NCBI GenBank assembly: GCA_949358305.1
Contig: OX442314.1
Location: 28,954,001 to 29,018,000, forward strand
Source of the DNA: Strigamia acuminata
Taxonomy: Eukaryota
Direction: 5' to 3'
DNA: 64,000 nucleotides
Part shown: positions 1-38,741 of the stretch, in pieces
Layout: each line of letters begins with the position of its first letter
How positions within the stretch are numbered: position 1 is the first letter of the stretch
Notes under the pieces: model-generated
Told to the model about the DNA's origin: nothing
The model's database searches: none
Seen by the model: the letters and a program-made list of their open reading frames with translations, nothing else
Program-made: the position numbers and the translations under genes

Positions 1-1840
1 TTGTCCAGGCCGCCATAGCTTGCCGACTGTCCAAGAAGACGCCCAGGGATAGCAGCTGGGCCAGTACGTTCGTCACAGCCAAATTCAAACTGCTCCGATG
101 GCAGGGGTGAGCGCGGTCCGGATTGTCACTGAATTGCTGTGACAACGTCCGCATCTGTTCGATCGCCCAGTTGATGTGGTGAGTTTGGGCGGCGTCGGCC
201 TGTCGTATGGCCAACTCGGCAATCGCGGGGTTCTCGTATTCGGCCAGATATTCTTGTAACTCGCTGAGTGAGGGATAGGCCGCTTCACGCCGGCATCTGG
301 CGTCCATCCCCCGCTGCGCGTACCACTCGGCGTTGCGATGAGGATGGTACACTCGTGGCGTCGGGGGTGACGGTGGACGGCCCATCCCTGGTAGGTCGTC
401 GTATCTGACCCGTTTGGGAGTTGGATCTCCCACCGGAATCATCCGGGGAGGGGTCCACGTGGTCACTGCTGGGTTTGTACCCTCGAGGAGTGGCGGCCAT
501 CGCGATTGCACCTGTGGGGGCACAAGCGCGGTGGGCACAGCCGGTGTTGAGCCCGACGGCCGGTTGGCCGCGTATCCTCGGAAGGCGTTCTTCAATGCCA
601 TGGCCAGATCTTGTTTCGTGACCGGTCCATCCTTGTCCGACTCTTCTTGGGATATTTGTTCTTCCGTCAATTCTCCCAAATCAATCTCTGCCTGGAGCCT
701 GGACGGCCCAGCCGCGGATCCGAGACTTCGGGGTTCGGACCTTTTTGCGGCGGCCATCTCTCGCTCTTTCTCCAATCCTTTCGCGATCAGAGACCGCGCA
801 CGCGTCTTCTGTCGTACTTTACGCTTCCGATTCCTCCTGGTGTTGGCTGCGACGGATCTTTGTTGGACCGTCCTCTGGGGGACGTCCGTCGGGGAATCCG
901 GTCTCTGGTGTGTTGAGACGGTTCGTCGCGACGAGGATTGATCTGACGACTGTGTGGTAATCGCCATAAACAACGAGGATCTTTTCTTTCCTCGATCTTG
1001 GTGTGTCTCGGACCTCGCAGCCCAGTGGGCGGAAGATTCGACCGTTCGCTCAGCCCGCGCGTCGTCTGGCGAGGCAGGCTCGAGCGTTACTACTCGGCGA
1101 CACTCCGAGCGCACGACAACTCGAGTTCGGGAACTGGAGCTGCTCGAGCGGCTGCGGTAGTCGCGACTCGTTGACGGGCCGGCCTCTGTTGGGGAGACGG
1201 CCTGTCTTCTTCGTGCGGGTCCGCGTGGGGCGGACTCCGCCGGACGCTTCGATCTTCTGTGATGGCGGCGACTTCCCAGGATACCAGCGTGGTATAACTG
1301 CCACATCTCAGACTGCGTGGCCGTAAAATTCGCCGGTGGTATCCATCTGGGTGTCAAATGGTCTTCTTCGATGTCGCGAAGCCATCTACGGATTTCTTCG
1401 GGGGAGAAACCGTTTCTCTCGAGAACTCGGGTTACTCCGTGAGTCTCGGTGCGCTTTAAGCGTTCGATCTCGTCGTCCACTATTTTCTGGCGGGCTGCCA
1501 AGGTCGGGGCCTCGCTCCACCTGTGGGAGGTGTGCAGCTCGGCCACCGTGCCTGGGTAAGCCTCTTCCAGGTACCCGGAGTAAACGGGGCTCGGCGGATC
1601 CGCATCGGGTGGGATCCGCGGCCCCACTCGCTCCCTCATCTCCTTCGTCATGCACTCGACCAGCGTTTTCGATCGCTCGAATTTTTCCTCGAGGGTCCTG
1701 GAGTACATCAATCGGATTTTCCAGGCGCTGGTCTCTGCAGGATAGGCCTGCCGCAGGTAAATCGGCAGGGCTCCGCGAAAGATGTTGTTGGCGGTTGACA
1801 CCGTCGAAGGCAGGGCGTCCCACGATTCTAGCGGGTCGAC
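1..1840 (-). CDS. Main (last visible) exon of accessory ORF3 of element 1, >=613 codons, runs off the left edge; unknown function
   Basis: Acceptor ttattcAG at 1841-1842, then VDPLESWDALPSTVSTANNIFRGALP..WKIRLMYSR..DADPPSP..TQSEMWQLYHAG; same frame reads LLSLGVFLDSRQAMAAWT at the window edge. Colinear with element-2 ORF3. Absent from the ORF track, consistent with no in-window stop in this frame. Confidence 0.85.
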
Positions 1841-2163
1841 CTGAATAATTTTAGATCACAAGATTAATATAATAAATCCCAGTTTAACGATGGGGATCAG
1901 AAATATGCTCAAGATCGACGGTGGCAGCAACTCCTTTCTTTTGTTGCGGCCGTCGGTCTTATTTTCTTGTTTCGCAGTTCTGCGATGATCTCCGCCGTCG
2001 TAGCGCTGATCCAACACTACCTTTGAACTCAGGTGATCCGCTTTTTAGGAAGGGGTCGCAGGCAAAACCGATCGTTAAATTCTTAATATTACGTTAAACT
2101 TTTTATTTTAACTCTAATCGTATTTTAATTTATTACGATGTTTAATTTTAAAAGAAAGAAAAC

Positions 2164-2518
2164 CTTTAGTTTTGGTTTTGGTTTGCCACGACGCCATTCC
2201 GCGAACACTTCCTTTGTTCTAGTTTTTTGGCGGCCTTGACTCCGAGGTGAATCTGGGTCCACTCTCGGGTTTTTAGCCAGCCTTAAATCAATAATAAAAC
2301 AGAAAGAAATATATCAGTCACAAGTCACGCTCCAATCTGGGTTGGATGCAACAGATTCAAAGAATTATGTGATTTCTCTGGGGAAATCACACTAATTTTA
2401 CCTGCAACGGCGGTTGTTCGTCCCAATTCTCATCGTCTTCTGCATTTACGATTAGGCCGTCGCTCTCGTCTCTCGACGATGCGCTCGGCTCTAATCGTGG
2501 GTTGCGTCGATCGGCCAT
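2164..2518 (-). CDS. Predicted upstream exons of element-1 ORF3 (2518-2402; possible 8-nt microexon 2336-2329; 2281-2164)
   Basis: ATG at 2518 gives MADRRNPRLEPS...EQPPLQ then CAG|GTAAAA (phase 0). Phases 0/2/0 join in frame to the 1840 acceptor only if the microexon is used; donors GTGACT and GTTTTC are weak. Confidence 0.5.
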
Positions 2519-2898
2519 TTCAATTTAGGAAAATGAAGTTTTGTTTGAGAGGTCTTTGTCTTTCTCTTTGGGGGAGAAGCAAAAACACGTCTCGTCGTGT
2601 TAAAAACAGTCGGAAACTGGGCCTATCGACGCTGAGAATTGTGGGTCTCGAACGCGTCTCGTATTTTGCGAGATCCGCCGTGCTGGCAATGACGCTACGG
2701 GGTCGACCGCGTGGTTTCATTGTCACGTGGTCGCCCGATACGTCATAACTTCTCGTCTGTTAGTGGTGACTGCGACAATTCGTTGCGAAGTTTGGACTTA
2801 GCCAAATTTTCGCGTTTCAACATGTGCAGCAGCTCTCGTAAGTAAATCTTTTTATTTTACAAGGCCTCCGCTCCATGTTATCACATTTTCTTTTATTT

Positions 2899-5800
2899 TT
2901 AGTTCTTCCCCACGACTTTGCCGTCCCGAATGAACGGATTATTGCTTCGTCGTGGTCGAAGGTTGATTTTCGACGTGCTCGTAGATCGTGACTCTACTTG
3001 CTCGTTCATCTCCGATGTGTTGGCATTTTTCTCATTATTAATTTTTTTATTTTCCATTTCAGAAGTACATTCTTCTGCTTCCTCCCTCTCCGAAATTGCT
3101 TGCTCCGGCTGTGCTGGAGCCTCGTCGGCCGGAGATTCGGCGTCGAAGAATTCATCCTCGTCCTCCGCTATATTTTCAGCTTCATTTGTTTTTTGGAACG
3201 TGTCGACCACGGTGCCCCCTTGGCCGCTGTGTGTCTGACCTTCCAGCCAGATTTCTTGGGGAAACTCTGGCAGATATGGCCTTAAATCTCGGCCATGTAT
3301 CGACTGAAAATTTTTGTTGTCCTCTAAGCGGCGTAGTTGGTATGCGTTGCCGCCGTGTTCGGCCACAATTACATAGGGACCGTCCCTCTTGTCGGCTAAA
3401 CCTGCGGCGATGCCCCTCGCTGCATTGGACAACGTGTGTGCCTCCTTCCACACTAGATCATTCACTTTAAAGTTCGCGAAAGCGAGATCGCCTTCTTTAT
3501 CTGCGATTCTTTCTCTCATGTTGAAAATATGCGCCATCATATGCTGGTATGTGTCGGATATAGTCTGTTCCAACCGGCACACGTACTCGTGTGGGCTCGA
3601 TGGGTCTAATACGTTAACAGCTTCGGCAACGCGTGGGTCCCATGGCATCCTTAATTCGCGGGCGAAGTTGAGGTACGCCGGTGAGAATTCGCGTGTTCTT
3701 GACACGGTTGAGCGAATGCTGAAAGCGATTTCTCGCAGGTATTCGTCCCATCGATTGTGAATGTCGGTGAATACTGTCAGCGCATATTTTATATCTTTAT
3801 TTAATCTCTCGACTGGGTTTGTCTGAGGATTATATGTGGAGGTGTTCGATGCATCCATTTTAAATTTCCTACAGAAGTCCTTATATATTCTTGATCGGAA
3901 TTGGGGGCCGTTATCCGAAATGAGTTTTCTGGGAAACCCAAATCGCATTGCCACGTCGTAAAGGCACTCGACTATGTTTTCAGCCGAGGGCTTCGCGAGG
4001 GCGTACAGCTCCGGCCATCGGGTGGCCACGTCCATAATTACGAGAATATACATGTTCTTGTTTCCCGTTGTGGGCTTGGGGCCCATCAAGTCTATGCTTA
4101 AGCAGTCAAACGGTGCGTAGGGTCCGAGAGACATGGCGTTTCTGGCTACTTTATCTCGCGGTCTGCATGCTTGGCACCGGGGGCAGTGTCGGATAAATTT
4201 CGTTATCTTTTGCCGCGCGCCCGGCCAGAAGAAAAGTTGCTTTACTCGATAAAGGGTTCTCGCTATGCCGGAATGGCTGGCGAGCGGGTGTCCGTGCATC
4301 AGCCACAACAGTCGGTTGTGCAGTGATGCCGGTACGACCACTTTCACCGAGTTTCCCGCTCCACTGAGGTCATCTTGAAATGTCGGGTGGTATTTTACCA
4401 GGAGTTCATCATCTATGAGGTAGCTTGTTGCTTCTTTGACGAACTGTTTCCGGCGGTGTGGGTTTGTCATCCCTTCCGGAAATTCGCCGTTCAGCAAATA
4501 TTGTGTTATAATTTGACATTTTGTGTCTGCTGCCTGGTGTTCGACGAACTCACGTCTCGTGGGTGGAGCATATTGCGTTTTTTCTTCAATTTTTGCTGTG
4601 AAGGCGCGTAGTAGTGTTTTGTGGGTTTCTCCGGGGGGCGGAGGTTGAATTGCGGACGTTGAATCGCTCGTCCCAGCTGGCTGGTACGTTCGAGTCCAAA
4701 AACCACAAAACGTTCTATCTTCGGGCTCCATCACCGGCAGTTCGTTTGCTTTTCGTAAGCGCCATATTCTGCGTGGAGTTGGGCAGTACAAGAGGTGGGT
4801 GTCGTCCTCGCCGTCGTCGTCTGGTCCCTGGGGGTCAGAGGCTGGGGCTCTTGAGAGGGCGTCGGCCACATGATTGTACTTCCCGGGGCGGTACGTAATT
4901 GTTATATCGCACGCCATTAACTCCAGTTGCCATCTTGCGAGTCGGCCGGAAGGTTCCTTGAGCTTCATCAACCAGCTTAGTGCCTGGTGATCTGTCTGAA
5001 CCTCGAAGTTCGTGTACTCCAGATAGTCGCGAAATTTTCGAACTGCCCAAATTACGGCTAGGCATTCTAGTTCCGTTGCCGTGTAATTTTTCTCCGCGCC
5101 CTGTATTTTCCTGCTTATAAACATACAGGGTACTTCTTGCGAGATTCCGTTGTACACGTGGGTCTGCAGAAGGGCTGCACCCAGTCCGATTTTACTCGCG
5201 TCGGTGTGCAACACGAACGGTCGGTTTAGGTCCGGCAATGGCATCTTTTCGACGTCAGCCAGCATTTGCTTGATAGTGCTAAATGCGGCCTCGCACTGGA
5301 CCGTCCACTCAAACTCTTTATCCGTTCGTAAGAGATCCGTTATAGGCGCGGCCACCTCAGCCAGACCAGAGAGTAGTCGGCCGAAGAAATTGACCATGCC
5401 CATGAATCTTTGGACACCTTTTATATCTTCGGGGGCGGGGAATCCGTTTATTGCTTTGACCTTTTCGGGGTCAATCGCGATTCCCTCGACTCCTATTCGA
5501 TATCCTAGGAAGGCAAGCTCTTTTCTGCAAAACTTGCTCTTCCCTGGATGGATGTGGAGTCCCGCCTTGGCTAGGCGAGAGACCACTCTGTCGATGTGGT
5601 CTATATGCTCTTCGAATGTGTCCGACGTTATTATTATGTCGTCGAGATACGCCCACACGAAGTCGTGAAGCATATCTCCCAACACGCTTTCGATCAATTT
5701 CTGGAACGTGCTCGGGGCGTTTACAAGCCCGAACGGCATCACGTTGAACATTAATCTTCCTATCGGGGAGTAGAAAGCCGTTTTTAGTTTGTCTTCTGGT

Positions 5801-7035
5801 TTTAGCTCCACTTGCCAATACCCCTTTGACAGATCCATCGTGGTTACCCACTTGAACGGGCTCAGTTCCCGGAGGATCGAGTCTATAGACGGCATCTGAA
5901 TCGGGTCTATAACTGTTATCGCATTCAGGGGGCGATAATCAATGCATAGTCGAGGCTCCGAGCCTGGACGCATTACCAGGACGATCCGCATCGCGTATTC
6001 GCCCAGCGCTTGAGTTACTATGCCCTTGTCGAGCATGTCTTGGCACATCTGCGTCACAATGTCTCTTTTCTGGGGGTTCATCCCCTTGTAAGGCACTCGA
6101 ATCGGCTTGTCTGTGGTTAAGACTATTTCGTGGGTTGCTTCCGTCGTTCGACCAGGTGTCTTGGTCAGAATTCTTTCATGTTTTCGAAGCACTCGCCTTA
6201 GTAGCGATGCCTCGTTAACACGCAGTGCTGCCTCCTCGACCAGTGTGTCCACGACGTTACTCCTCTGTAATTCCAGAGTGAAGGCTGCGAAATCGTAATC
6301 TTGGACGAATTTTCGCAATCCTCTTCCGTATTCCTCTTTGTCCTTGGCTTCGTCCAGTAATTTTTGGGGAACTACGGGGACTGGCCGTTCTCCCTCGGGA
6401 CTTATCCAGTTCCATGAACGGGTTATCGGGTTTGGCTGAATTTTCAGTTTTGCCATGATATCCATCCCTAAGAGGAATACTTTGTCGTGGGATGGCAAGA
6501 CTATGAAGGGGTGGGACAGGTTCCCCCCCTTCCAGTCGATCATGATGCGAACTACGCCCCTCGGCTTGACGTAGCCGTTGGCGGTGAGCAATTCTACGTT
6601 CGCGTTCACTTGTGCCACCTTTTTTTCAATATCCAAGTCCTTTACTATATCTTCGGATATGAATGAACGATCTGCTCCTGAATCCAGCAGACCGAACAAT
6701 TTTTGGTTTTCGATCTCCACTGGCAGCATACACAGAGTTTCGCAATGTGCTTTCGTGACATTGCAGTGAAATACGCGTAATGTCTGGGGCTCAACCTCCA
6801 GATTGAACGGAAGGTCCGTCCAATCCATGTCGACCTCCGGTTTCGTTCTCACTTGCATACTCGTTAACGTCACTTTTTCCTCCTTCTTCGGAACGATCTG
6901 TATGCGGTCTTTGATCTGTGCCTCTGCCAAGGCATGACCTGCGGGTCCAGTGTGATATTTCTTCTTTTTAATTTCCGCGGCTGGCGCAGACGAAGCTGAA
7001 TTTATTTCGGCGACGCCTGCGCTTGGAAGTTTTTT
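2899..7035 (-). CDS. pol: Pol of element 1 (protease, reverse transcriptase, RNase H, integrase with GPY/F motif), entered by -1 frameshift
   Basis: LLDSGA, AYLDD, HTDAS, HGHPLASH..CPRC, IDLMGP/SDNG/NPVER, RDGPY; the -1 frame is open back to the slippery site. Confidence 0.96.
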   Translation of the reverse strand, partial: KKLPSAGVAEINSASSAPAAEIKKKKYHTGPAGHALAEAQIKDRIQIVPKKEEKVTLTSMQVRTKPEVDMDWTDLPFNLEVEPQTLRVFHCNVTKAHCETLCMLPVEIENQKLFGLLDSGADRSFISEDIVKDLDIEKKVAQVNANVELLTANGYVKPRGVVRIMIDWKGGNLSHPFIVLPSHDKVFLLGMDIMAKLKIQPNPITRSWNWISPEGERPVPVVPQKLLDEAKDKEEYGRGLRKFVQDYDFAAFTLELQRSNVVDTLVEEAALRVNEASLLRRVLRKHERILTKTPGRTTEATHEIVLTTDKPIRVPYKGMNPQKRDIVTQMCQDMLDKGIVTQALGEYAMRIVLVMRPGSEPRLCIDYRPLNAITVIDPIQMPSIDSILRELSPFKWVTTMDLSKGYWQVELKPEDKLKTAFYSPIGRLMFNVMPFGLVNAPSTFQKLIESVLGDMLHDFVWAYLDDIIITSDTFEEHIDHIDRVVSRLAKAGLHIHPGKSKFCRKELAFLGYRIGVEGIAIDPEKVKAINGFPAPEDIKGVQRFMGMVNFFGRLLSGLAEVAAPITDLLRTDKEFEWTVQCEAAFSTIKQMLADVEKMPLPDLNRPFVLHTDASKIGLGAALLQTHVYNGISQEVPCMFISRKIQGAEKNYTATELECLAVIWAVRKFRDYLEYTNFEVQTDHQALSWLMKLKEPSGRLARWQLELMACDITITYRPGKYNHVADALSRAPASDPQGPDDDGEDDTHLLYCPTPRRIWRLRKANELPVMEPEDRTFCGFWTRTYQPAGTSDSTSAIQPPPPGETHKTLLRAFTAKIEEKTQYAPPTRREFVEHQAADTKCQIITQYLLNGEFPEGMTNPHRRKQFVKEATSYLIDDELLVKYHPTFQDDLSGAGNSVKVVVPASLHNRLLWLMHGHPLASHSGIARTLYRVKQLFFWPGARQKITKFIRHCPRCQACRPRDKVARNAMSLGPYAPFDCLSIDLMGPKPTTGNKNMYILVIMDVATRWPELYALAKPSAENIVECLYDVAMRFGFPRKLISDNGPQFRSRIYKDFCRKFKMDASNTSTYNPQTNPVERLNKDIKYALTVFTDIHNRWDEYLREIAFSIRSTVSRTREFSPAYLNFARELRMPWDPRVAEAVNVLDPSSPHEYVCRLEQTISDTYQHMMAHIFNMRERIADKEGDLAFANFKVNDLVWKEAHTLSNAARGIAAGLADKRDGPYVIVAEHGGNAYQLRRLEDNKNFQSIHGRDLRPYLPEFPQEIWLEGQTHSGQGGTVVDTFQKTNEAENIAEDEDEFFDAESPADEAPAQPEQAISEREEAEECTSEMENKKINNEKNANTSEMNEQVESRSTSTSKINLRPRRSNNPFIRDGKVVGKN
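6984..7035 (-). promoter_or_regulatory. -1 programmed ribosomal frameshift signal (element 1)
   Basis: A_AAA_AAC (7035-7029) in gag register, 6-nt spacer, stem GCGCAGGCG/CGUCUGCGC; pol is in the -1 frame. Confidence 0.85.
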
Positions 7036-10000
7036 GCCAGATCAGTTCTTAACTCCATCATCATTTTCATCATGGTTTGCATGATGTCCTTTTCTTTGAC
7101 GGTTTTCTCACATTTATCTGAGTAGTGGCCGTATTCTCCACAGCTGTAACATTTGATGTTACTTTTATCCCCTGTGGGAGTGAATCCCGGTTTTTTCGGG
7201 ACGAAGGGCGTCGGGAATCGTCTTTTTCCTCCCAATGCTCCTCTCGCTTTTGTTGCTTGCACGTGTGCTCTGAATTGTGTGATTGCCAAGGCCCGGTGTG
7301 CATGGTGCAAATAGGGACCTTGATCGTCGCATCCCGTCGATAAGTTTTCGAGGTGCTCATTTAGGGCTTCCTCGTCGCTCGATGCTGGCTCCTCTTCTTT
7401 AGCCGTGGCGAGAGGTGTTGTCTCTTCGACTTTCTCCATCTGGGTGGAGTCCGTCGAGGTCACCTGCATCGCCGTCGCTGCCGGTGCTTTCTTTGGGGCA
7501 GCTATCGGGTTGGCTGGAAGAATACTGCCTGCTTTAGGCGTCAGCATTCGTCCGAAGGATGCTTCGGTGAGACTCATTATGCCGCTCAAATATTCACTTG
7601 GCCTCATTAATTTTTCTGAGGTCTTGTGGCGTTCGGCGCTCGTCTGCAACCGCTTCTCGTGCGCGTCAGCTTCTTCCGGGGGCAGAGTGGCGTAATACCG
7701 CTGTTCTATTTCTAACGTGTTTGTTAGAAGATAGTTACTGACATCTTGGTAATCGCCAGTGCGGGGTGCACGCATGTCTAGCAGAATTCTTTGCGAGTGG
7801 GCCGATAATCCTCCGTAAAAGATCATCGTAAAACCAGCGGGGTTTATTTCGTACGGCGCTCTTGCAAACAGGAGTTTCGCTCGGGCGTCGTAGTCGGCTA
7901 ATGTTTCTCCTGGGGCTTGCCGTAGACCACGTAATTTGTTACTGATCTCGTCTGGAGTCTCGCCGTATCGGAGATCGAAACGGACGAGAAAATCGTCCCA
8001 GGTTGGGTTTTTCAGTCCCTGATACCATTCTCGAGCTGACCCCGTGGTTAGCTCCACTAGACCGTGGGTTAGCATGTCGGCGACGGTGGCTTTTGTCGCT
8101 TTCTTGATACGCATTACTTCGTCTAGGAAGCGGTCTCCGGCCTTCCACGAACCGTCGAATCGTGTTTGTATGTAGTGTTGCCAACGGATGTTACCCGTGG
8201 CTTCGCTGCTTGGTTCGTTTCGTACGCCATATTTGCGCTTAACCCTCTCTCCGGCGCGATTATGTTCGTCGCCTGGATGGCCTAGATCTATTCCTTCTCT
8301 TCTGAAAGAGTTCAGCAGGGCTCGGCCTAGCTCAGACATCGTGTAATGTCGGCCAGATGAGTCCTGAAAGTTCCCTTCCTCCGAACGAGGGTTGGAGCTC
8401 CGGGAGGAGCGGTCTGAAGCATTCGGCCGGTTCGACCGGTGCCCATCGCTGTCTTCTTGACTCCTCCCTGTAGACGGTCGACTCGGATGGTCGTCGTCCG
8501 ACGAATCGGAGGGCTCGGAGGGATCTCCTTGGGGGTGAAACCTCGGCCCTCTCGGTGGGGTCTCTCCGCCAGCCTTCTTCTGTTTCGAGCCTCCGGATGG
8601 CGGCGGCTCCCCTCCGTCGTTGTTCTCGTAAAAAGAATGCCATCTGTTTTCCTCGCTTTCGGGGCGTTCCCGATTTTTATTTGCGTTTTTCTTTTCGAGT
8701 AACGCGTCGATGGCTGCTCCCGTCTCGGATCTTTTTGAGGGGTGACGGTCCTTTGTTTTTGGGACCGACTCGTCTCTCTTTTGAGATTTCCCCCTTTTCG
8801 CCGTTTTTGCCGGCTTTGTTGCACCTTCTCCTGTGTCGGTATCAGAGCCGCTGGGGGGTTCTGGTTTCCGTTTCAGGTTTTCTTCATTTTTCTTCCTGTC
8901 CGAGACGTCTTGTGCGTACTCTTTCTGGAACTTTTCTGTCTCCTTCTCCCAGTTTTCGGCTTCCCATCTTTTTTGCTCATCTATTATAGCTTGTTTCTTC
9001 GCTTTGTACTCTTCGGTCCATCTGACTCGATCCCACTCTTCTTTCTCTTTCAGAAACTGTTCTTTTTCTTTTCTGGCTTCCTCTTCTCTCAACCTCTCGC
9101 GATGTTGTTCTTCCCATTTCTGATGTTGTAGAATGGCCTCTTTTCGCAACATTTGTAGTTTTTCTGTTTTTCTTTGAGCTATTAGCGCTTGAAATTGGTC
9201 CTCGTACTCTTGAGCTTCTCGATGTCGCCCTTCTACTGTTGCGTTCCATTCTTTTCGAATTTTAGCTTCTCGTTCTTCCCTCATTTTTTGGACCAGTTTC
9301 TCTGTTCTCTCGGTGGTTCTTCTCTCGCGTTGCTCCCTTTCTTCCTCTTCCTTCCAGAGTTCTCGCCGCTCTGCGCTCAGCCTTCGTTGGCGACTAGTCG
9401 CTTCTTGTCTGGCTTCCTCGCGGGCCTTCTCTCTGGATTCGTGAAGTGTTCGGTTGGGGTCTGGCGCGAAACCTCCGGTGTCACTGGGCGTTACCTGGGG
9501 CATGGGCGTCTCCGCTGCTGGTCTTGCGACCGGCGTCGGGGCTTGTGCCGCACAGATAGCGTCAGTGAGTAGGGTAATCGATTCCCAGACTGACGTTCCT
9601 ACTGGAATGTCTATCATCGCTTTTAGCTGGGCAGCTTGCTGCGTCAACCGAATTAGGTGAGATACTTCGAAGGAAACAACTGCAGGACTCGCCGTAACTC
9701 GGGGGGTTATCGGGGTCCCGCCGTCGTTTTTCCGTGGGGTTTGTTTTACGGACGTCTGAGCCGTTGGTGGCGATGGGTCTGTGCCGATCGTGACCGTTAT
9801 TTTCGGAGCTTCATTCGTCTCCTCGGTCATCAATATCGATACTCGTCCTGGCGATACGTCGCGAATTTCTTCTCGATTTTCTATGGCTTCCGGATCGGTA
9901 TCTTCGAAGGGTTGCATATTCAAGGGAACCCGCTCTCGCTCTGGCCCGTCTAGGGCCGCGAGCGATGCAGCTTGCTCCTCTTTCTGCGCCTTCGCTCTCC

Positions 10001-10142
10001 TTTTATTCGCTCGGGCTTTCGCCTTTGCGGACATTTCAGGGACGGGACCATCCGATCTCAGGTGGTAGTCGGAGGTCCTTTTTCCCTTCTCGGGCATTCT
10101 CTGCTCGGTTTCAGACGTGGATTGCTCGTCTTTGTCTGACAT
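7002..10142 (-). CDS. gag: Gag of element 1 (1046 aa; E/R/K coiled-coil, disordered region, capsid-like domain, CCHC knuckle)
   Basis: AREWY..WDDFLVRFDLRYG..LRQAPGETLADY retrotransposon-gag motif; CYSCGEYGHYSDKC. Confidence 0.93.
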   Translation of the reverse strand: MSDKDEQSTSETEQRMPEKGKRTSDYHLRSDGPVPEMSAKAKARANKRRAKAQKEEQAASLAALDGPERERVPLNMQPFEDTDPEAIENREEIRDVSPGRVSILMTEETNEAPKITVTIGTDPSPPTAQTSVKQTPRKNDGGTPITPRVTASPAVVSFEVSHLIRLTQQAAQLKAMIDIPVGTSVWESITLLTDAICAAQAPTPVARPAAETPMPQVTPSDTGGFAPDPNRTLHESREKAREEARQEATSRQRRLSAERRELWKEEEEREQRERRTTERTEKLVQKMREEREAKIRKEWNATVEGRHREAQEYEDQFQALIAQRKTEKLQMLRKEAILQHQKWEEQHRERLREEEARKEKEQFLKEKEEWDRVRWTEEYKAKKQAIIDEQKRWEAENWEKETEKFQKEYAQDVSDRKKNEENLKRKPEPPSGSDTDTGEGATKPAKTAKRGKSQKRDESVPKTKDRHPSKRSETGAAIDALLEKKNANKNRERPESEENRWHSFYENNDGGEPPPSGGSKQKKAGGETPPRGPRFHPQGDPSEPSDSSDDDHPSRPSTGRSQEDSDGHRSNRPNASDRSSRSSNPRSEEGNFQDSSGRHYTMSELGRALLNSFRREGIDLGHPGDEHNRAGERVKRKYGVRNEPSSEATGNIRWQHYIQTRFDGSWKAGDRFLDEVMRIKKATKATVADMLTHGLVELTTGSAREWYQGLKNPTWDDFLVRFDLRYGETPDEISNKLRGLRQAPGETLADYDARAKLLFARAPYEINPAGFTMIFYGGLSAHSQRILLDMRAPRTGDYQDVSNYLLTNTLEIEQRYYATLPPEEADAHEKRLQTSAERHKTSEKLMRPSEYLSGIMSLTEASFGRMLTPKAGSILPANPIAAPKKAPAATAMQVTSTDSTQMEKVEETTPLATAKEEEPASSDEEALNEHLENLSTGCDDQGPYLHHAHRALAITQFRAHVQATKARGALGGKRRFPTPFVPKKPGFTPTGDKSNIKCYSCGEYGHYSDKCEKTVKEKDIMQTMMKMMMELRTDLAKNFQAQASPK

Positions 10143-10216: not shown

Positions 10217-10234
10217 ATCCCGGCCAGGCCCCCA
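10217..10234 (-). promoter_or_regulatory. Primer-binding site, tRNA-Pro type (element 1)
   Basis: TGGGGGCCTGGCCGGGAT, 2 nt (CG) after the LTR; resembles canonical tRNA-Pro PBS TGGGGGCTCGTCCGGGAT. Confidence 0.85.
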
Positions 10235-10236: not shown

Positions 10237-11056
10237 TGTCGCGTCCTACTTGGTATAGGTTTAAATAGCGCTAACGTGTAATACTTTACCTGTGATCAAT
10301 TATGTAAATACCCAAATGAATACCAAATGTATGTAAATAAACAGGTAATTTATTCACCAGGCTTTATGCCTTTAAAATACACTCAGTAATAATTCTAGAG
10401 TCGACGTGGTCAGCGTCGAACAAAGGATTTCTCAAGATGGCGTCGTCGATTCCGCGTGGTCGGCGGAACAAAGGCGGCGTCTCGAGTTGTCGTTAATTCG
10501 TCACGGATTCGTCTTCACGGACGCGGTGGAATGCTCTTTCGAGTCTTCTATCCGTGCCTGTTGTCTAGGGTTTGTTTAGCGTCGCAGAGGCCTCGTCTAG
10601 GAACTTTGGGGTTCCCTACAAAGCACTCGGACACTTACTTCGGCGAATAATCGTCTGGGCGATTATTCTGGGTGATTTCACAAGGGCTATTCTCGTGCTT
10701 TCGCAGGAATAGCTCGCAAGTGACTTCGTGAGAGTTACAGTTTGCACTTTACTCAGCGATCCTCGATCAATCCTAACTTGTAGTTGAAGTTGGCCTGACG
10801 GTGAGGTAGTTGCTGTGTTCTTGGTGTCGTTTGTGTAAGTTCTGTCTTTAGGCGGGAAACACAGCCTTTTATGCAGTGGGGTGAAGGGCCGGCGATCAAC
10901 CAATGGGGGCTGACCACCAGCCGCTTCCTCCCCGTCGGGGCACACACCTGCCATGGGGAGGTGGAGCCAACTCGGGGGGGAACGACTCTTTAATCATAGT
11001 GACTCATAGGACAAGTATCCGCCCTGGGGGGACACTTATCCAACTGGGTCACCACA
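10237..11056 (-). repeat. 5' LTR of element 1 (820 bp)
   Basis: Minus strand starts TGTGGTGA (same as element-2 LTR) and ends ..CGACA next to the PBS; partner LTR not in window. Confidence 0.8.
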
Positions 11057-11969: not shown

Positions 11970-12503
11970 AATGATTAATACCGCTTAGGTTAAGCTTTCA
12001 GTAAGCCACATGACATCTAGATCAATCTTAGCACTATCATTTAATATTCTCAAATTGTATCTCTTTGTCCGTATGTTTCTGCACAATACAATGTAGGAAA
12101 TAAAGTAAATGAAATAAATGAATTAACTGACTCATCATTGAATGCGCCTAACATAAATAAAATATTAATTTTTCTAACGCGCAGTTATGCGCCTGGTCCT
12201 GAGTATCCAGGTCCTGTTGATCAGGATTTTTATAATTCCTGTGTCCATGTCATCTCATTGGAGATGGACGACCATTCATGATTGTGATGTTTAAATCTGT
12301 GTCTTTTATTCAAGAGTTCACTAGATGGCACTGTCAATCAAATATCACAATACAGTCTGTCAAAATAATTACGTTTAGTTAATTAGGAGTGGTCTTGAGA
12401 AGTATAACAGTTTCTATCTAACTTTAATCAGGATCGATACCGAATCGACGTCGTCCGACTTATCTCGACTCACAATCATTTTTGCAAAGAAATGATTAAA
12501 TAT

Positions 12504-13462
12504 TGCTGCGATCCGGGTTTTTATCCACTTAATTTCTAATAAATTAAGCAGAAACCGCAGGTGAATGCTTTACAAGACTTATATCGCGGCCGAAACTTGT
12601 CTAGGGTTAAGTTTACGGAAATAGGAATAAAAAGACAGTTTATTATGGTAATAAAAATCACACAAATGTTTTATTCGATAAATTACAATATATACTAATT
12701 ATGATTGTGAATATCACAGAATAAAATGAGCGGGAAACAATGAAACAAAGGAAGGGCTTGCAACGACTGTTGCAAGCTACAAAGCGTCAGAAATGGCGCT
12801 TAAACAACTTGAAGTTGTTAGGCGAAGGCAAATTGTCTTCGTTCTACGAACTCACGAACGATGGTCGAAGACGATGGTTCTCGTGGGCTCCTTCTACGGC
12901 TCGTGCGACGGCTCGGCGGCGGTGGTTGACGGCTGTAGGCGTCCGGCTTTCGTACGATGGCGGTGGCTGTCGTTCGCGCAACAGCGACGGCGATGGTTCA
13001 CGATCGTCGGGAATCTTCTCTTCTCGATTGCTGGAATTAGCGACGGCTAATTCAAGCAGGATTGCTGGCTTTGTGCGTTTGATACACAAAGATAGCAGGT
13101 GAAACTGAGTTACAACGGTCCTCTATCAATACTTTTCTTTCAGGAGCAAAAGCAGTGATGTTGAGGTTGTTGTTGTATTTTTCAGAGTCTCGATTTGAGC
13201 CAAGACGCGAGCCCAGCACGCTTCAATATTGCGCAGAAAACCTGCGCACTTAGCTCAAATGGGTGCAACTAGTGGTTATTACACCATATTGCACCATAAC
13301 GGCTAATAACCGTTTTCACCCCGGACAACCTGGGGTGATATGTGCCTAGAGAGGATTTCTCCCCTCGGTCACATGATCTGACTTGGCGTGTGCCACAGTC
13401 AAATTAATTAGAAGATAATTAATTTAATCTTCTAAGTTGGTGAATATTTTGAGATCACCACA
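12504..13462 (-). repeat. 3' LTR of element 2
   Basis: Direct repeat of 23885-24843 (offset 11,381); preceded on - by the purine tract AAATGGGGGGATG (PPT, ~13463-13475). Confidence 0.97.
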
Positions 13463-13514
13463 CATCCCCCCATTTAAGACGAATCTTACATGGAGAGAAA
13501 ATGAACGAACCAAT

Positions 13515-16310
13515 TTATGATTCGTCCATGGTCTGAGTTCGCTCAGGCGTCAACGGGCGCATCATATCCGTGGTGTCGTCCCTCGGGTTGGACCGCTCGT
13601 TAACCGTACACAGGTCGCGACCTGCGTTTGGTCCGGAGACCATTCCAGGGTTGACATGAAGCCAAACCTGGATGATTCTTGCCGAGTTCGCTCGGTTGAA
13701 GAATCCTAGCGCCGCGAACTCGATTGGATCCTCTGGCGCTAATCGTGCTCTCAGGAGTCGATCATGGAGCACCGATGGTGGGCTTAACACCCGGATGTGG
13801 TCCTCGAGCCACATAAACACCTGCCTCGACAACTTGTGGTTGTTGCTAAGCAGTGTTCGCGTATCCGGCGTCAAATAGAAGTGCGGATACAGGCGCATTA
13901 GGGTCTTGAAAGCCGACTCTTTTTTCAGCGGCTTGACCTTCGTCTCCGGCTTGGCTGGCGGCGGCGGCGGCGGACGTGAGTCTTCCGTCGTGGCATCGTC
14001 AAACTGGCACTGCGGGCCCAAGAAAACCAACGCGGGTGCGGAGGTTGACGAGGGTGTGACGCCTCGTCCCGGTGCTCGACCCACACCGGGGAGCTGACGG
14101 GTTTCGACTACCCGTTGAACTCCGGCTGGAGTTTGAGAACTTCCGGCGTTCTCTGGCCAAAATGAACATCCAGCGCCCTCTTGGGCCGACTGGAAAACAG
14201 CCAGTGACGCAGCTGCTGTGGCGCTTGTAACTGGAAGCGGTGGTCTTCCGGTCATTCGCGCCGTGGCCTTCGCAAAGGACCACTCGGTTCGCAACCGAAC
14301 GGCGGCCTCTTCTTCGGTCTCACCGTTTGCTACGACTTGCTTTATTAGCTCGGCTAAGATCGTAGGCGGGTCGAGCCTGAGGTGGTACCACAGCTCGACT
14401 TTCTTCTCCGACAGGCCCATCGGCGCGGTCCAAAGGTACGTTATGGCCGCTAACGCCTGTCCTGGCGAAGGAAGAACACCAGGGTACAACACCCTAGTCA
14501 TCCCCGGAATTAGCTGACGCTGAAAATCCATCAGACGGGGATCATCAATGGTATTGATGTCGGAGACTTCTAGCCTTTCAGCTAGTCTCTGCCAGTCCTT
14601 CTGCGACTCGGCGATCTGGGCGCTTTGGTATGCGTCCAGCTTCTGGAGCACTTCCTGCTGTGCTCTAATGGGTTGCTGCTCGTAGCAGGTCCATTGTGGG
14701 CCGAATGACTCACTAAAAAATGGCCGGAGTTGCAGGTTGCTAACTCCAGCCGGCAAGCGGGAAACATATCCTTGTTCGGGCAAGCGGCTAGCATGTCCAG
14801 GTACTGGCACGCTACAGTCGGGAGAAATATCACCGACAACACGTCTCATGGCGTATGGAGTAGCCGAGTTGTCCACTTTGAACGTGGAGGCGGTTCGGCT
14901 ACTTCGGGCGGACTTAATTGTGGAGTCCGATTCAAAACTCAGCGAAGACGACGAGCCAAACGACTCTGGTGTCCGTCCTCGTCGCGACTGCGGGCGTGAT
15001 GGCTGCGCGTCAGTCGAATATGGGCGTGATCGCTTCTGACGTTCCTCTCGATCGCGGCTTGATTCGCGGAACATCGGTCGGACTGGAACCGGCGGAGGGA
15101 GTTGCCCCACCCTCAAATCCTCGTCTTGCGGCGGAGGATTGATGGCCGCTGGGGCCGGAATTTCATCTTCTTGATAAAAAGGGAGAGCGCAACGCGCTTG
15201 CTCCTCTGCCTCGTGTTCTCGAGCCAGTTGTCGATTTTCGTCGACGCGAAGCTGCACCGCGGCAGCTCGGAGTGCTTTGGACGGGAAAAATCCCGGAAAA
15301 TCGTTAAAACACCCGGCGAGCGCCAACTGGTGGAGCTCGGTTTGTGTGACGGGAAGTTGTGGGTTCCCGTCACGAACGGATTTGCGATACCGTTTAACGA
15401 CTTCGCGTTGTGTCGTCTTGAGGTTCTTCCTCAATTGGGTTAGAGCACCGTAATTAATTCCGGTACTCTTTAGCGCTCTTCTGCGCTCGTGACGCTCTCG
15501 TGGCGTCACTGGCCACTGGTTGTGCAGCAACTCTGCTGCAAGCGGTCCTGGGGGGCTCTCGTCGAGCGTCCACTCGATTTCGTCGACACCGTCCACGTGA
15601 AGGCGCTCGATGAATCTTCCTTTTGCACCAAATCCTTGCAGCGCTGATCTGCTGAAGTCGTGGCGCAACTTCCACCAGGTATTGTTTGCCGTCTTCAGTC
15701 TTCTGATTTTTTCGGGCAATGCCGCTCGAAAAATCAGCGGGTGCTGAGTCGGCACGTGATCGGGAAGCGCGAATGGCGTTTCTCGATCCCTCTCGATCTG
15801 TATTCGAAGAAAAATAAATAAATTAGTTTATTTAAAAATAAACAAATAATTTCTTATTTGAAATATTTTTTAAGCTTAGCGCTTGTGGCTGTGAGTCACT
15901 AAGGGATGTTGGTTGTCATGGCAACTCCCTTCGCACATGCTTGAAGCACGTGACTTTTATAGCCGCCATTTTTATTTTTTAGCGGCTTGTGTTTGAAGTC
16001 AGGAAAAGTGAAATTACTCAATTTTTCTGACTTAAACACTTGGTAAAAATTTATTCTAATAATTTACCCGTTGTTGAAGCGTCAATTGAACGTCTTCATT
16101 TGCCCCTTCCATGGGCATTTCTCCGTCCGCCTGGAGTTGGATCGCTTCCTCGTCCATTCTCTTTCGTTTTCCGGTAATTTCGGAAATTCTTTCGTCTTGA
16201 AAGAGAAATAATACATAAATCTTATGTTTTATCAAATTTTTCATACAGAAAAATTACTTACGATCAGGTTGTCGAACTATTCGGGTCGTAACGTAGGCGA
16301 TGCGATGCAT
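13515..16310 (-). CDS. Accessory ORF3 of element 2: predicted 3 exons (16310-16262, 16195-16068, 15797-13515), ~819 aa, unknown function, not Env-like
   Basis: ATG at 16310; GTAAGT donor (phase 1) matches tttcAAG acceptor (phase 1); GTAAAT donor (phase 0) matches taCAG acceptor (phase 0), giving MHRIAYVTTRIVRQPDHERISEITGKRKR..QQR-IERDRETPFALPDHVPTQHPLIFRAALP..; no signal peptide or TM helix evident. Confidence 0.82.
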
Positions 16311-16329
16311 ACACTCTCGAAACTTTTGA

Positions 16330-16450
16330 AAAAGTGACTAAGTTCGTTGATTGCAAACACGAACTTGGATTAGAGACGCTTTGTGACGTCACTAATTATA
16401 ACGTATGATTAACGTTGTCATTCGAGTGGGTACTACGAATGACGTCACGA
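16330..16450 (-). promoter_or_regulatory. Candidate internal promoter for ORF3
   Basis: Two TGACGTCA (CRE/ATF) palindromes at 16384 and 16440; TTAGTC initiator-like motif ~30 nt before the ATG. Confidence 0.35.
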
Positions 16451-16499
16451 GATTGCTTTCTCGGATCTTTTGGGTAAACCCAAAAGGTGAAAGACAACA

Positions 16500-19400
16500 C
16501 TATGTCTTGGCTCGCGGAACGCGAGATCTCAAGTTGTACTTTGACTTTCGCGAAGTACAATCCAACTTGTTTAGATTGTCATCAGCATCGTCTCCAATGT
16601 CAGATGAGTTATATACTTCATTGTTTGAAATTTTCTCTTTTTCTAAAAACATTTCCTTTTCTAGATTTTCATCAAGAGAAACATTTTCAAGTCGCTGGTT
16701 TATTTCATCGACTTCGTTATTTTTGAGTTTCGATTTTTTACTCGATTCCGTGTTTTCGACAGGAATTTTGGATAATTTAGCATCATCCAAGGTATTAACA
16801 ATATTTTTTGTTTTTTGACCCACTTCCTCCCCTTCCAGCCAAATTTCTTGGTTGAAAACGGGAAAGTACGGCATTAATTCAGTGCCGTGAACAGCTGGAT
16901 AAATTTTATTATCACTCAGCCGTCGAAGTTGAAAGGCGCCTCCTTGTAACCTTTTGATAATTACATAAGGCCCATTCCTTTTCGGTGAAATGCCTGCTGC
17001 TATTCCTTTAGCGGCATTTGAGAGAATATGAGACTCTCGCCAGACTAAATCATTTTGTCTGAAGTTGTCGAATTTCTTATCTGATTTTTCAGCTTCGACA
17101 CGGCGTCTCAAATCTAAGACGTGAGACATCATATGCTGATACGTCTCTGCAATTATTGTTTCTAATTTCTGAACATATAAATGCGGATTTTTTGGATCAA
17201 TGACTAAAATTCCTTCCGGAATTCTTGGATCCCAAGGAATTCTTAATTCTCGGAAAAAATTTAAGAAAGCAGGAGAATAATCTCTGCCTCTTGTTACAGT
17301 TGTTCTCAAACTGAATGCAAATTCGCGTAGATACTCATCCCATTGGTCATGAATATCTAAATAAATCGAAACTAAATATTTAATATCTCGATTGGTTCTC
17401 TCCACAGGATTGCTTTGTGGATGATAAATCGATGTCGGTGTTCGCGACATGTCGAATTTTTTGCAAAATTCTTTATAGACCTGTGATCGAAATTGTGGTC
17501 CATTATCACTTATGATTTGTCTCGGAAATCCGAAAGTCATTGATAAGTGATAAATTGTGTTGGCAACTTTTATTGCCGTTGGATTACACATTGGAAATAA
17601 TTCGGGCCAATGTGTAGCGACATCTACGATGACGCAAATGTGGGTATTGTTTTTTCTGGTTCTTGGTTTGGGACCAGACAAATCCACACTGAGGCAGTCA
17701 AATGGTCCAAATGGTCCAATTTGAGCGCCTTCAATTTCGGTCTTTGATCTCGGCTTACATGCCTGACATCCTTGACAATGTTGAATAAAACGTGTAATAT
17801 CACGTTTCATACCTTTCCAGGTATAAACTCTTCGAGTTCGGTACATTGTCCTCGCAATGCCTGGGTGGCCGGACAGTGGATGTCCGTGCATCAACCAAAT
17901 GATTTTATAAATCAATTTTCTTGGCACAACAACTTTAAGTGCCCTACCATCCTCTCCCAATTCATCGGTGGAGGTAGGATGATAATGGAGTAGCATATCT
18001 TCTTCAATGAGATAAGTACTCGCGTGTCTTTCAAAGTTTCTTCTTTGAAGACGAGTTACTATGTAACTTGGATATTGCTTGTTTAGCAAGTAATTGCGAA
18101 TATGTTGGCAAAATTCGTCTGCTTTTTGCGCTGCAATAATGTCATCTCTCGTTGGAGGATCACATTCTAATTGCTTCGCAATTTTAGCTGCAAATGCTTT
18201 AATTAAAACATTTGTTGTTGGCAGCTCGAATTTTTTAGCCATCATAGCTCTTAATTCGACGTCAGGGGTTCCTGACGGATCATGCATGTTAATACAAAAA
18301 TTAATTAATGCTTGATCGTCGTCATTAACTATTATTGACTTGGGTAATTCGTTCAATTTTCCCATTTGCCAACTTCGGCAAGGAGATGGACAATATGATA
18401 ATAAATCATCATTATCGCCATCGTCTTCTGGTTCGTCAGGTGCGCTGACAGGTGCACGTGACAATGCGTCTGCTATTACATTTAGCGGACCTTTGACGTA
18501 TTGTATTTCGAACGAATACGCCATCAGCTCCATTTGCCAACGAGCTAATCTGCCCGACGGGTCAGATAACGACATCAACCACCTAAGTGCTTGGTGATCC
18601 GTTTGTACAGTGAATGTAGTGTACTCTAAGTATGGGCGAAATTTGCGTAATCCCCATACTACTGCGAGACATTCTAATTCTGTCACAGTATAATTCTTTT
18701 CAGCGGGTTGCAAGCTTCTGCTTGCATACACGCATGGCATTTCGACTTCTTGGCCATCCACATTTTTCTTTTGTGTAAGGGCTGCACCCAACCCTTGTTT
18801 ACTGGCGTCAGTATGAACAATAAATGGCATGTACAAGTCAGGCATCTTCATTGTTTCAGCATTCGTAAGCAGGTCTTTTATTGCGTCGAATGCTGCTTGA
18901 TGATGCAGTTCCCAATCGAACTCCGCATCTTTCTTCAAGAGTGGCCTTAGTGGTTCTGCCACTGTGGCCAAATTCTTGATTAGGCGGTGAAAGAAATTCA
19001 CCATGCCTAGAAATCTTTGTAATTCCTTAAGATTGGTAGGAGCAGGAAATTGCGTAATTGCAGCGACTTTTTTAGGGTCTACTGCAAGTCCTTCTACTCC
19101 TACTTTGTAGCCTAGAAAAATTAATTCCTTTCTACAGAGATGCGTCTTGCCAGGGTGCGCATGTAAATTAGCTTCTGCCAATTTTTTAAACACTATATCT
19201 AAATGTTTAATGTGTTCTTCGAACGATTTGGATACAATAATTATGTCATCCAAATATGCCCATGCAAATTTTCTGTAAACGTCACCCAAAACTTTTTCCA
19301 TTAATTCTTGGAAGGTAGTTGGTGCGTTTACTAATCCGAAAGGCATGACTAAAAACATTAGTCTTCCCATTGGGCTCCAGAAGGCAGTTTTTTCTCTGTC

Positions 19401-20759
19401 TTCAGGTCGCAATTCTATCTGCCAATATCCCTTGGTCAGATCTATAGTACTGACCCATTCGAATTCTCCGATTTCTCGCAGAATTTCCTCAATTGTTGGC
19501 ATTTGAGGTGGGTTGTACTTAGTATGTGTATTGATGGGGCGAAAATCAATGCACAAGCGTGGGTCGTTTCCTGGTCGCATGACTAGGACTGGCCGCATTC
19601 CGTAATCGCCTTCAGCTTTGACGACTACGCCTTTGTCAATCATGTCTTGACAAAGTTGTCTGATTATTTCCCTTTTTTGAGGGTTTATGCTCTTAAAGGG
19701 GACACGGATGGGTTTCTCCGTGTCAAGCTCAATTTTGTGCTTAACCAGGTGTGTTTTACCTGGATCTTTAGAAATAATCCTTTTATGTTTGGATAACATC
19801 TTTTCTAATAATTTGGATTGCTCCAAATTTAAGTTAGCTTCTTCGACTAACTTTTGGATGAAATTCTCTTCATCAATTTTGCCTTGAGTTACACTTGCAG
19901 CGTAAGCTTTTGCAAAGGTCATAAATGAGGAATCGGGTTCCTCTATTTTCTCCAAATAACGATCCAGCAACGCTTGTGGAATGTAGGGTAAATCTGCATC
20001 CATAGGTTGCGTGAAATTCCAAGACATCGTCTGTGGATTAGGTTGGATTTTTAATTTATTCATAAAATCGCAACCCAATAGTACCATTGGATACTTATTT
20101 GGTATTACGATGAACGGATGACGTAACGTGCCATGTGTCCATCGAAATGAAAGATGGATGGTTCCATCTGGAGTGACTTCTTCACTTGCCGTCGTAACTC
20201 TGACACCAGGTCCGATAGGTCGTAGATATTTTTCTAGACCTAGTTGATTAATAACTGAAGTGGCTAGGAAGCTTTTATTTGCTCCTGAGTCCAACATTCC
20301 GGTTATTACACCTTTTAACGTTTCTAACTTTAACGTCGGAAGGTCTTGGCTGTTTGGTATTCCAGCCACTTTGCACTCAAACTTGCGCAATTTATGAGGA
20401 ATTGTAATTGGAGGCTCCAAAGGCAATTCATCTAATAACTCATTGGTATCAAGAGTTGTAGTTGCAAATAACTTAATGCATTCCTCAATTCCAGGTGTCT
20501 CTGGAACTGAGCTTGGTCTATCGTCTTTAACTTCGACTTTATCTTGAATATTGGAAGTGTCTTCTTCAGTCGGGGTTTCGCCGACAATCTCCTTTTTTAC
20601 ATCAAGAGATCCTTTTTCTTTTAGTTCTGTTTGACGAATTAATTCATCAATAACTTCTCCAACATCTTCCATTATCTTCAGATTTTCATTCTCTGATTCC
20701 GATTTCGGAGGTGACGCAGCGTCCACTAGACCTGATGGATCTGCGTCTACAAGTTTTTT
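16500..20759 (-). CDS. pol: Pol of element 2 (PR-RT-RH-IN), entered by -1 frameshift
   Basis: MLDSGA, AYLDD, HTDAS, HGHPLSGH..CQGC, VDLSGP/SDNG/NPVER, RNGPY. Confidence 0.96.
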   Translation of the reverse strand, partial: KKLVDADPSGLVDAASPPKSESENENLKIMEDVGEVIDELIRQTELKEKGSLDVKKEIVGETPTEEDTSNIQDKVEVKDDRPSSVPETPGIEECIKLFATTTLDTNELLDELPLEPPITIPHKLRKFECKVAGIPNSQDLPTLKLETLKGVITGMLDSGANKSFLATSVINQLGLEKYLRPIGPGVRVTTASEEVTPDGTIHLSFRWTHGTLRHPFIVIPNKYPMVLLGCDFMNKLKIQPNPQTMSWNFTQPMDADLPYIPQALLDRYLEKIEEPDSSFMTFAKAYAASVTQGKIDEENFIQKLVEEANLNLEQSKLLEKMLSKHKRIISKDPGKTHLVKHKIELDTEKPIRVPFKSINPQKREIIRQLCQDMIDKGVVVKAEGDYGMRPVLVMRPGNDPRLCIDFRPINTHTKYNPPQMPTIEEILREIGEFEWVSTIDLTKGYWQIELRPEDREKTAFWSPMGRLMFLVMPFGLVNAPTTFQELMEKVLGDVYRKFAWAYLDDIIIVSKSFEEHIKHLDIVFKKLAEANLHAHPGKTHLCRKELIFLGYKVGVEGLAVDPKKVAAITQFPAPTNLKELQRFLGMVNFFHRLIKNLATVAEPLRPLLKKDAEFDWELHHQAAFDAIKDLLTNAETMKMPDLYMPFIVHTDASKQGLGAALTQKKNVDGQEVEMPCVYASRSLQPAEKNYTVTELECLAVVWGLRKFRPYLEYTTFTVQTDHQALRWLMSLSDPSGRLARWQMELMAYSFEIQYVKGPLNVIADALSRAPVSAPDEPEDDGDNDDLLSYCPSPCRSWQMGKLNELPKSIIVNDDDQALINFCINMHDPSGTPDVELRAMMAKKFELPTTNVLIKAFAAKIAKQLECDPPTRDDIIAAQKADEFCQHIRNYLLNKQYPSYIVTRLQRRNFERHASTYLIEEDMLLHYHPTSTDELGEDGRALKVVVPRKLIYKIIWLMHGHPLSGHPGIARTMYRTRRVYTWKGMKRDITRFIQHCQGCQACKPRSKTEIEGAQIGPFGPFDCLSVDLSGPKPRTRKNNTHICVIVDVATHWPELFPMCNPTAIKVANTIYHLSMTFGFPRQIISDNGPQFRSQVYKEFCKKFDMSRTPTSIYHPQSNPVERTNRDIKYLVSIYLDIHDQWDEYLREFAFSLRTTVTRGRDYSPAFLNFFRELRIPWDPRIPEGILVIDPKNPHLYVQKLETIIAETYQHMMSHVLDLRRRVEAEKSDKKFDNFRQNDLVWRESHILSNAAKGIAAGISPKRNGPYVIIKRLQGGAFQLRRLSDNKIYPAVHGTELMPYFPVFNQEIWLEGEEVGQKTKNIVNTLDDAKLSKIPVENTESSKKSKLKNNEVDEINQRLENVSLDENLEKEMFLEKEKISNNEVYNSSDIGDDADDNLNKLDCTSRKSKYNLRSRVPRAKT
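20713..20759 (-). promoter_or_regulatory. -1 programmed ribosomal frameshift signal (element 2)
   Basis: A_AAA_AAC (20759-20753), 5-nt spacer, stem GACGCAG/CUGCGUC plus UCCA/UGGA; the -1 frame is open into pol. Confidence 0.85.
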
Positions 20760-23770: not shown

Positions 23771-23864
23771 TTTTCAAATGAAGACAAAGAAAGGATAGAG
23801 AAGAAAGATAAGCAAGATAAAAATGGCGGGTAAATTTTAAACTATCAAAATTTATACAATGACT

Positions 23865-23882: not shown

Positions 23883-23884
23883 CG

Positions 23885-38725: not shown

Positions 38726-38741
38726 TGAGATACAGATACGC

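Follow-up and report, generated by a model that had tools for sequence, protein, structure and literature searches.

How the unspliced RNA of LTR retrotransposons passes nuclear retention is still mostly an open question, and one of the rare trans-acting cases known is that of Cer1, a tRNA-Pro-primed element that needs the spliced CERV product to export its genomic RNA (PMC10309623). CERV is also the only retrotransposon precedent found in the literature outside subscription journals; the main text of PMC10309623 names no RNA target for it and mentions neither a stem-loop nor an RRE. In HIV and HTLV-1, the spliced products Rev and Rex bind a structured RNA and move unspliced RNA out, the RRE being located on intron-retaining RNAs (PMC3342944) and the RxRE in the LTR (PMC7551171). 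Another type of arrangement is found in ssRNA viruses, where packaging signals consist of many stem-loops that share a motif genome-wide, coding regions included (PMC6281560).

The locus described here, element 1, lies in a 64-kb window (the whole stretch of DNA that was analysed) and resembles Cer1 in being a Ty3/gypsy element with a tRNA-Pro PBS (TGGGGGCC) and an additional orphan protein encoded by a spliced mRNA (PMC10309623, PMC3315495), the splicing being predicted in the case of this protein, ORF3. The Cer1 PBS, TGGGGGCCG, matches those of element 1 and of its sister, element 2, at 8 of 9 letters. The gene layouts differ, however: CERV has exons in common with gag and carries a Cys loop, whereas ORF3 follows pol and shows no invariant Cys akin to that loop, and the gag and pol of Cer1 are not separated by a stop, whereas those of element 1 overlap in the -1 frame. 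The position of ORF3 downstream of pol and the different frames of gag and pol led to the rejection of membership in the Cer1 family.

The retrotransposon and its sister

Element 1 is a Ty3/gypsy LTR retrotransposon on the minus strand, in which gag, protease, reverse transcriptase (RT), RNase H (RH), integrase, LTR and PBS are all present; its 5' LTR lies inside the window and its 3' LTR outside. The boundaries of the 5' LTR (10237..11056) are predicted from its TG...CA termini and the PBS, and its signals include CATAAAA at 10873 and AATAAA at 10354. The PBS, TGGGGGCCTGGCCGGGAT (10217..10234), is of the tRNA-Pro type when set against that of Cer1 (PMC10309623, PMC3315495). Gag (7002..10142; about 1046 aa) has a C-terminal CCHC knuckle that falls below the Pfam cut-off, and pol (2899..7041), encoding protease, RT, RNase H and integrase, overlaps gag at an A AAA AAC heptamer. 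The main exon of ORF3 (1..1840), with more than 613 codons and cut by the window edge, encodes two conserved domains and an Arg/Ser-rich linker.

Relatives of the integrase region comprise 48 proteins with 30-36% identity, the named ones being insect and spider elements (31-35%), which suggests an invertebrate host, and the best identity of RT-RH outside the window is 44% among the 17 matches compared. No related locus was found in viral contigs searched with Pol and with P0052, a homologue of ORF3 discussed below, and metagenome contigs contained one distant related locus (22%), which was left out of the comparisons. Element 1 is covered deeply and with many variants by the contigs of two runs, X1 and X2, from one study on one organism; this suggests a young multi-copy family, with the proviso that depth is not equal to copy number. 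Element 2 (12503-24843, minus strand) is a complete sister with the same layout, a Pol 50% identical to that of element 1, a tRNA-Pro PBS and a homologous predicted spliced ORF3 of 770 codons. Its 959-nt LTRs differ at 1 of 959 compared positions (the offset last base) and are probably flanked by an ATAT target duplication.

One hexaloop on unrelated stems

The original prediction was of three hairpins with the same CCCAGA loop within 150 nt of the minus strand, and all three sequences are found there. H1 (2367..2392) has a 10-bp stem, with its loop at 2382-2377; H2 (2329..2349), the weakest, has a 5-bp upper stem, an unpaired A and a loop at 2341-2336; and H3 (2242..2268) consists of 5 bp (one of them G-U), a bulged A and another 5 bp, with its loop at 2257-2252. 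The RNA folding check bore the prediction out, since all three are part of the minimum free energy (MFE) fold of 2200-2430 (z -2.82). In a 206-nt context, H1 and H3 are stable, with upper-stem pair probabilities of 0.99-1.0 and 0.83-1.0, respectively; H2 is marginal (0.38-0.52) and is formed about half the time. The bulged A that had been placed 5 bp under the loop in two of the hairpins is clean in H3; the A of H2 is likewise unpaired, but the stem below it is poor, consisting of just 2 bp or, in a second folding, leaving the A within a 1x2 internal loop. The claim of a fixed hexaloop on differing stems holds beyond chance, as the 1059-nt pol-ORF3 region, shuffled 3000 times with its dinucleotides kept, gave no hexaloop more than twice, against the three copies observed.

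When every CCCAG in the window was scanned, 7 of the 11 CCCAGA on the sense strand of element 1 proved to be the loops of stems with 5 bp or more, a cut-off adopted from the stems of H1-H3 as first described, against 0 of the 18 remaining CCCAGA in the 64 kb. The four further hairpins, all on the minus strand, have loops starting at 10659, 7444, 3933 and 879. The LTR hairpin (10645..10668), with nine Watson-Crick pairs, is part of the predicted R region, the GTAAGT donor at 10638 following after 6 nt, and the gag hairpin (7426..7457) stacks 5 bp, a 3x3 internal loop and another 5 bp under its loop. The integrase hairpin (3921..3940) has 7 bp, including one G-U, and its loop forms the Pro-Arg codons of FGFPRK, while the ORF3-coding hairpin (864..888) has 5 bp and a bulged G on the 3' side.

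Several lines of statistics bear on this recurrence. Closure of a hexaloop by at least 5 bp has a background of 65 in 11030 positions (0.6%), whereas in a held-out test restricted to CCCAGA outside H1-H3, four of eight form hairpins (binomial P 8e-8). Block shuffles (n=300) never yielded a hexaloop, whatever its sequence, more than twice. Persistence in coding sequence is equally a direct observation: three of the six coding CCCAGA are in hairpins, a number reached by none of 5000 synonymous shuffles that kept the protein fixed. For the relaxed motif CCCNNA, 5 of 67 occurrences in coding DNA are in hairpins (three of these five being the exact sites), and again none of 5000 shuffles reached five.

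The stems of the seven sites are unrelated and use four closing pairs (G-C, A-U, U-A and C-G); thus, the loop is the conserved part and the stem merely presents it. Only five of the seven hairpins could also form on the antisense strand, to which none is specific, because two stems require sense G-U pairs, which mildly favours the sense RNA; an antisense-strand element was rejected on the same grounds. Taken together, the seven hairpins very probably constitute a selected RNA motif, and a loop that recurs unchanged on varying stems and is retained even within coding sequence most likely represents a protein-binding site, as far as can be judged from sequence. The multimeric, protein-read array that had been proposed is therefore retained as a repeated selected motif backed by statistics, the four new copies included, but not as a local structure, since the sites are dispersed over the element. 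The CCCAGA hairpin set is apparently undescribed, as no paper outside subscription journals was found to treat such a motif in its title or abstract.

Hairpins with loops one or two letters off, at 10610 (CCCAAA), 1509 (CCCCGA), 732 (CCCGAA) and 518 (CCCACA), all on the minus strand, are possibly lower-affinity sites. A further CCCAGA located 13 nt before the loop of the LTR hairpin (10680-10667, minus strand) appears as a small tandem duplication. It is preceded by GAAATCAC, which is the same as the 3' arm of H1, so that long-range pairing with the H1 5' arm is possible.

Predicted splicing of ORF3

Coding exon 1 of ORF3 is predicted at 2402..2518 (minus strand) and consists of the ATG and 39 acidic codons, ending in phase 0. 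The same layout is seen in element 2: the ATG exon, short and acidic in each case, leads to a GTAAA donor in phase 0 (2401 and 16067, respectively), the long ORF3 exon starts at a phase-0 AG (1841 and 15798), and the two proteins align from the intron end onward (E 3e-7). This shared exon/intron layout, together with the alignment from the AG, places H1-H3 within 160 nt of the 5' end of a predicted intron of 561 nt (1841..2401, minus strand), which has GT..AG ends and is strongly structured (z -5.7). A second predicted intron runs from the LTR donor at 10638 to a predicted acceptor at about 2566. Under these two introns, five of the seven hairpins would be intronic, and the LTR and ORF3-exon sites would remain in the spliced mRNA.

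The hairpins had been placed at the ORF3 splice sites, which applies to the donor, with H1 beginning 9 nt after the GT at 2401, inside the predicted intron, but not to the likely acceptor at 1841, 400 nt past H3. The loop of H2 does hold an AG, as was claimed (position 2337), yet its use as the acceptor is probably wrong: it would define a 65-nt intron followed by ATT GGA GCG TGA, with a stop at the fourth codon, so this AG is at most an alternative, unproductive acceptor. It was rejected as the main ORF3 acceptor, since the in-frame acceptor at 1841 has a counterpart in element 2, and 1841 is probably the site used. Three of the seven hairpins lie at most 25 nt from a donor that matches at least 7 of 9 consensus positions (background 7%, P ~0.01, post hoc), and four do not. 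No joint at the predicted introns is present among the 15/43 joints listed for the X1/X2 contigs, a result that is uninformative on splicing if these are DNA runs.

A phase-0 donor-like site, CAG/GTGACC, is located at 7463 (minus strand), 19 nt before the loop of the gag hairpin, and the distance from the donor at 2401 to the H1 loop is likewise 19 nt (18 nt in most other copies). The site at 7463 could allow an in-frame Gag-ORF3 fusion, reminiscent of the exons that CERV has in common with gag.

The ORF3 protein

Among 1.84 billion representatives, ORF3 has one homologue, P0052 (E 4e-8), and a homologue search among proteins of 920-2625 aa returned none. Both an N-terminal (E 3e-13) and a C-terminal domain (E 2e-4) are common to P0052 and ORF3, so that ORF3 represents a real, conserved orphan family. 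P0052 has 525 aa and is encoded on a 2921-nt metagenomic contig, where its acidic N-terminus runs straight on into the conserved domain, which would suit either an intron-less gene or a spliced copy. No match to ORF3 was found in Pfam, PDB or Atlas, and its structure models reach a mean pLDDT of 49.6 and 39.3, too low for use. ORF3 contains an Arg-rich stretch (10 R/K of 17) and an RS-rich linker, with 21 RS/SR dipeptides; the Arg-rich stretch is unmatched in the element 2 protein, whose best window has 8/17. A leucine NES pattern is absent from the 613 aa of ORF3 inside the window, whose edge cuts the protein.

Variation within the family and absence from element 2

In the region 2225-2415, no substitution is listed at a frequency of at least 1% in the X1 or X2 contigs, where the totals for the whole element, 510 and 612 variable places per 11400 nt at 5%, would lead one to expect 8.5 and 10.3; this rate takes in the LTR and flank. 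Two indels fall in this region, both outside the stems. The variant list is incomplete, as two high-depth X2 contigs differ once, unlisted, in 2250-2326. None of the 35 best-supported variants inside element 1 (from the best 40 of 667 rows) falls in the 175 hairpin bases, an observation that is weak alone. The low variation across the H1-H3 region is thus only suggestive of conservation.

Conservation of the loops in a sister family, which the original prediction had made a test, was not found: CCCAGA hairpins are absent from element 2, the one sister compared and a distant one (Pol 50% and ORF3 N-domain 27% identical). The motif is therefore family-specific. A scan of element 2 for a substitute loop of 3-8 nt found none above shuffles (60 per loop length); since this element has a homologous ORF3 and no over-represented loop, the combination of ORF3 with a repeated loop is not general in the clade. 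Its 270-nt ORF3 intron (z -6.4) contains four strong hairpins with unlike loops, and near-variants occur as single cases, namely CCAUGA over a stem of 4 bp in the intron and a CCAAGA hairpin in pol. The integrase of element 2 has the same Pro-Arg, written CCG AGA, without a stem. The LTR of element 2 carries seven CC[AG]TCG in about 190 nt (24427-24245, minus strand) shortly before a GTGAGT donor (24236); this motif occurs 11 times in the element, is not found in hairpin loops of the MFE fold and is perhaps that family's own signal.

Comparison with known RNA hairpins

The likeness to an iron-responsive element (IRE) that had been noted extends to the topology, an upper helix of 5 bp above an unpaired base, and fails at the identities of loop and bulge. 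The IRE has an A15 G16 U17 triad and a bulged C8 (PMC8466369), whereas the triad is CCA and the unpaired base A in the present hairpins, and a bulge is lacking altogether in H1 and in the LTR hairpin. An Rfam scan of 1800-3000 (E<=10) gave no IRE and four weak matches, none near the gathering score. IRE identity was therefore rejected, for want of both the AGU triad in CCCAGA and a C at the bulge. A nucleolin recognition element was also rejected, as it needs UCCCGA in the hairpin loop, where CCCAGA is present.

The pseudotriloops of the IRE, HBV epsilon, the BMV promoter and TAR offer another comparison, since C1 and G5 are able to pair across the hexaloop in all seven hairpins, H2 and H3 have the 5-bp upper helix over an unpaired base, and the gag site has an internal loop. 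However, a stable pseudotriloop is favoured by G-C closure and a 3' pyrimidine (PMC3884659), and with G-C closure in one of the seven hairpins and a purine, A, at position 6, the set argues against such a structure.

Candidate readers of the hexaloop

The explanation favoured here, if tentatively, is that the spliced ORF3 protein binds the seven hairpins as a response element dispersed along the RNA, and thereby restrains splicing or exports the unspliced RNA. The mRNA for ORF3 would be spliced twice, from 10638 to about 2566 and from 2401 to 1841, and the protein would read the loop rather than the sequence of the stem. As five of the seven sites lie in predicted introns, unspliced RNA would carry many more sites than the ORF3 mRNA; protein bound beside the 5' splice sites would hinder donor use, unspliced genomic RNA would leave the nucleus through the bound ORF3 in the fashion of HIV Rev, and rising ORF3 would switch the output from ORF3 mRNA to gag-pol/genomic RNA. 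ORF3 is favoured as the reader because the motif is family-specific, mostly intronic and partly beside donors, and because the element encodes an otherwise unexplained spliced protein; family-specificity would also fit an element-encoded partner better than a conserved host partner. The predicted logic is that of Rev/RRE and Rex/RxRE, and CCCAGA sites are found both in a predicted intron, as is the RRE on its intron-retaining RNA, and in the LTR, as is the RxRE. The RRE and RxRE are single large structures, whereas element 1 has seven small hairpins with one fixed loop over 10 kb. Rev is also much smaller than ORF3, and regulators of the Rev/Rex type combine an Arg-rich motif with a leucine-rich NES, of which ORF3 shows the Arg-rich stretch and no NES in the 613 aa inside the window.

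A competing possibility, considered rather unlikely, is that Gag, or ORF3 acting as a protein of the particle, reads the hairpins as packaging signals scattered along the RNA, by which full-length RNA would be selected and assembly nucleated. Assembly mediated by packaging signals is defined by a pattern of dispersed stem-loops with a recognition motif in common (PMC6281560), the sites span the whole RNA, and removal of the two predicted introns would eliminate five of them. Family-specificity would suit a fast-evolving Gag, which is 24% identical between elements 1 and 2 over 394 aa, and the weaker loops CCCAAA, CCCACA, CCCGAA and CCCCGA would suit graded affinities, even if the viral signals are degenerate and the loop of element 1 is exact. 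Retroviral and Ty Gag proteins, however, recognise RNA mostly via the 5' region and G-rich single strands, unlike one fixed hexaloop; moreover, the densest cluster is intronic and 8 kb from the PBS, and three of the seven sites adjoin splice donors. Dispersed packaging signals were not found described for LTR retrotransposons in the literature outside subscription journals, and binding by Gag would extend them to this group. It is also unlikely that a host RNA-binding protein, such as an SR protein (e.g., SRSF2), a KH protein or an export adaptor, silences splicing or promotes export through a constitutive element, in which case the CCCAGA loop would be a new structured binding motif. Three sites are close to donors, the CCAG in the loop fits the SSNG consensus of SRSF2 (PMC9022966), and the loop resembles the nucleolin motif UCCCGA (PMC12293987). 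Nevertheless, UCCCGA is not matched by the loop, six positions fixed across seven copies are far tighter than SSNG demands, neither element 2, in the same host, nor element 3 uses the motif, and none of the 18 CCCAGA elsewhere in the window is in a hairpin.

Two further ideas, even taken together, are regarded as improbable: that the loops act by pairing with RNA, in kissing contacts with UCUGGG or the UGGG in the PBS, or that H2 regulates splicing by masking an alternative acceptor followed by a stop. CCCA is indeed complementary to the first bases of the PBS, but the resulting duplex would have only 4 bp and leaves the fixed GA unexplained, the sense strand contains just one UCUGGG, and element 2, whose PBS is of the same type, lacks the loops; the AG in H2, 65 nt from the donor, would give a plausible short intron and H2 is metastable, yet this accounts for one site of seven. 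Very improbable, and largely refuted, is the view that the set has no function and stems from chance, local duplication or a replication artefact perfecting inverted repeats: the CCCAGA upstream of the LTR hairpin does resemble a small duplication and the set has no covariation support across relatives, but the stems are unrelated, the sites are up to 10 kb apart, three hairpins are kept inside reading frames and every shuffle test fails to reproduce the set.

If ORF3 is the reader, a wider and more doubtful proposal is that a Ty3/gypsy clade encodes a new family of RNA-binding regulators, with no known fold, that recognise CCCAGA on any stem. By counting these sites along its RNA, the element would choose between spliced and genomic output; the system would resemble Rev/RRE but be dispersed and of independent origin, and would supply a new orthogonal pair of protein and hairpin on a par with MS2 or PP7. 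One element joins a defined cis motif, one hexaloop at seven sites, with a candidate orphan protein, which opens the pair to a direct test with short RNAs.

Neighbouring elements

The remainder of the window holds further repeats. Element 3 (28850-33510, minus strand) is a single-ORF gypsy element with short LTRs, and a gag-protease element on the plus strand (35690-40400) ends after the protease. Finally, a tandem array of 1676/1686-bp units, in about nine copies that are 99-100% alike, occupies 41900-63500 and adjoins an inverted block with repeats of 56 nt and 553 nt.
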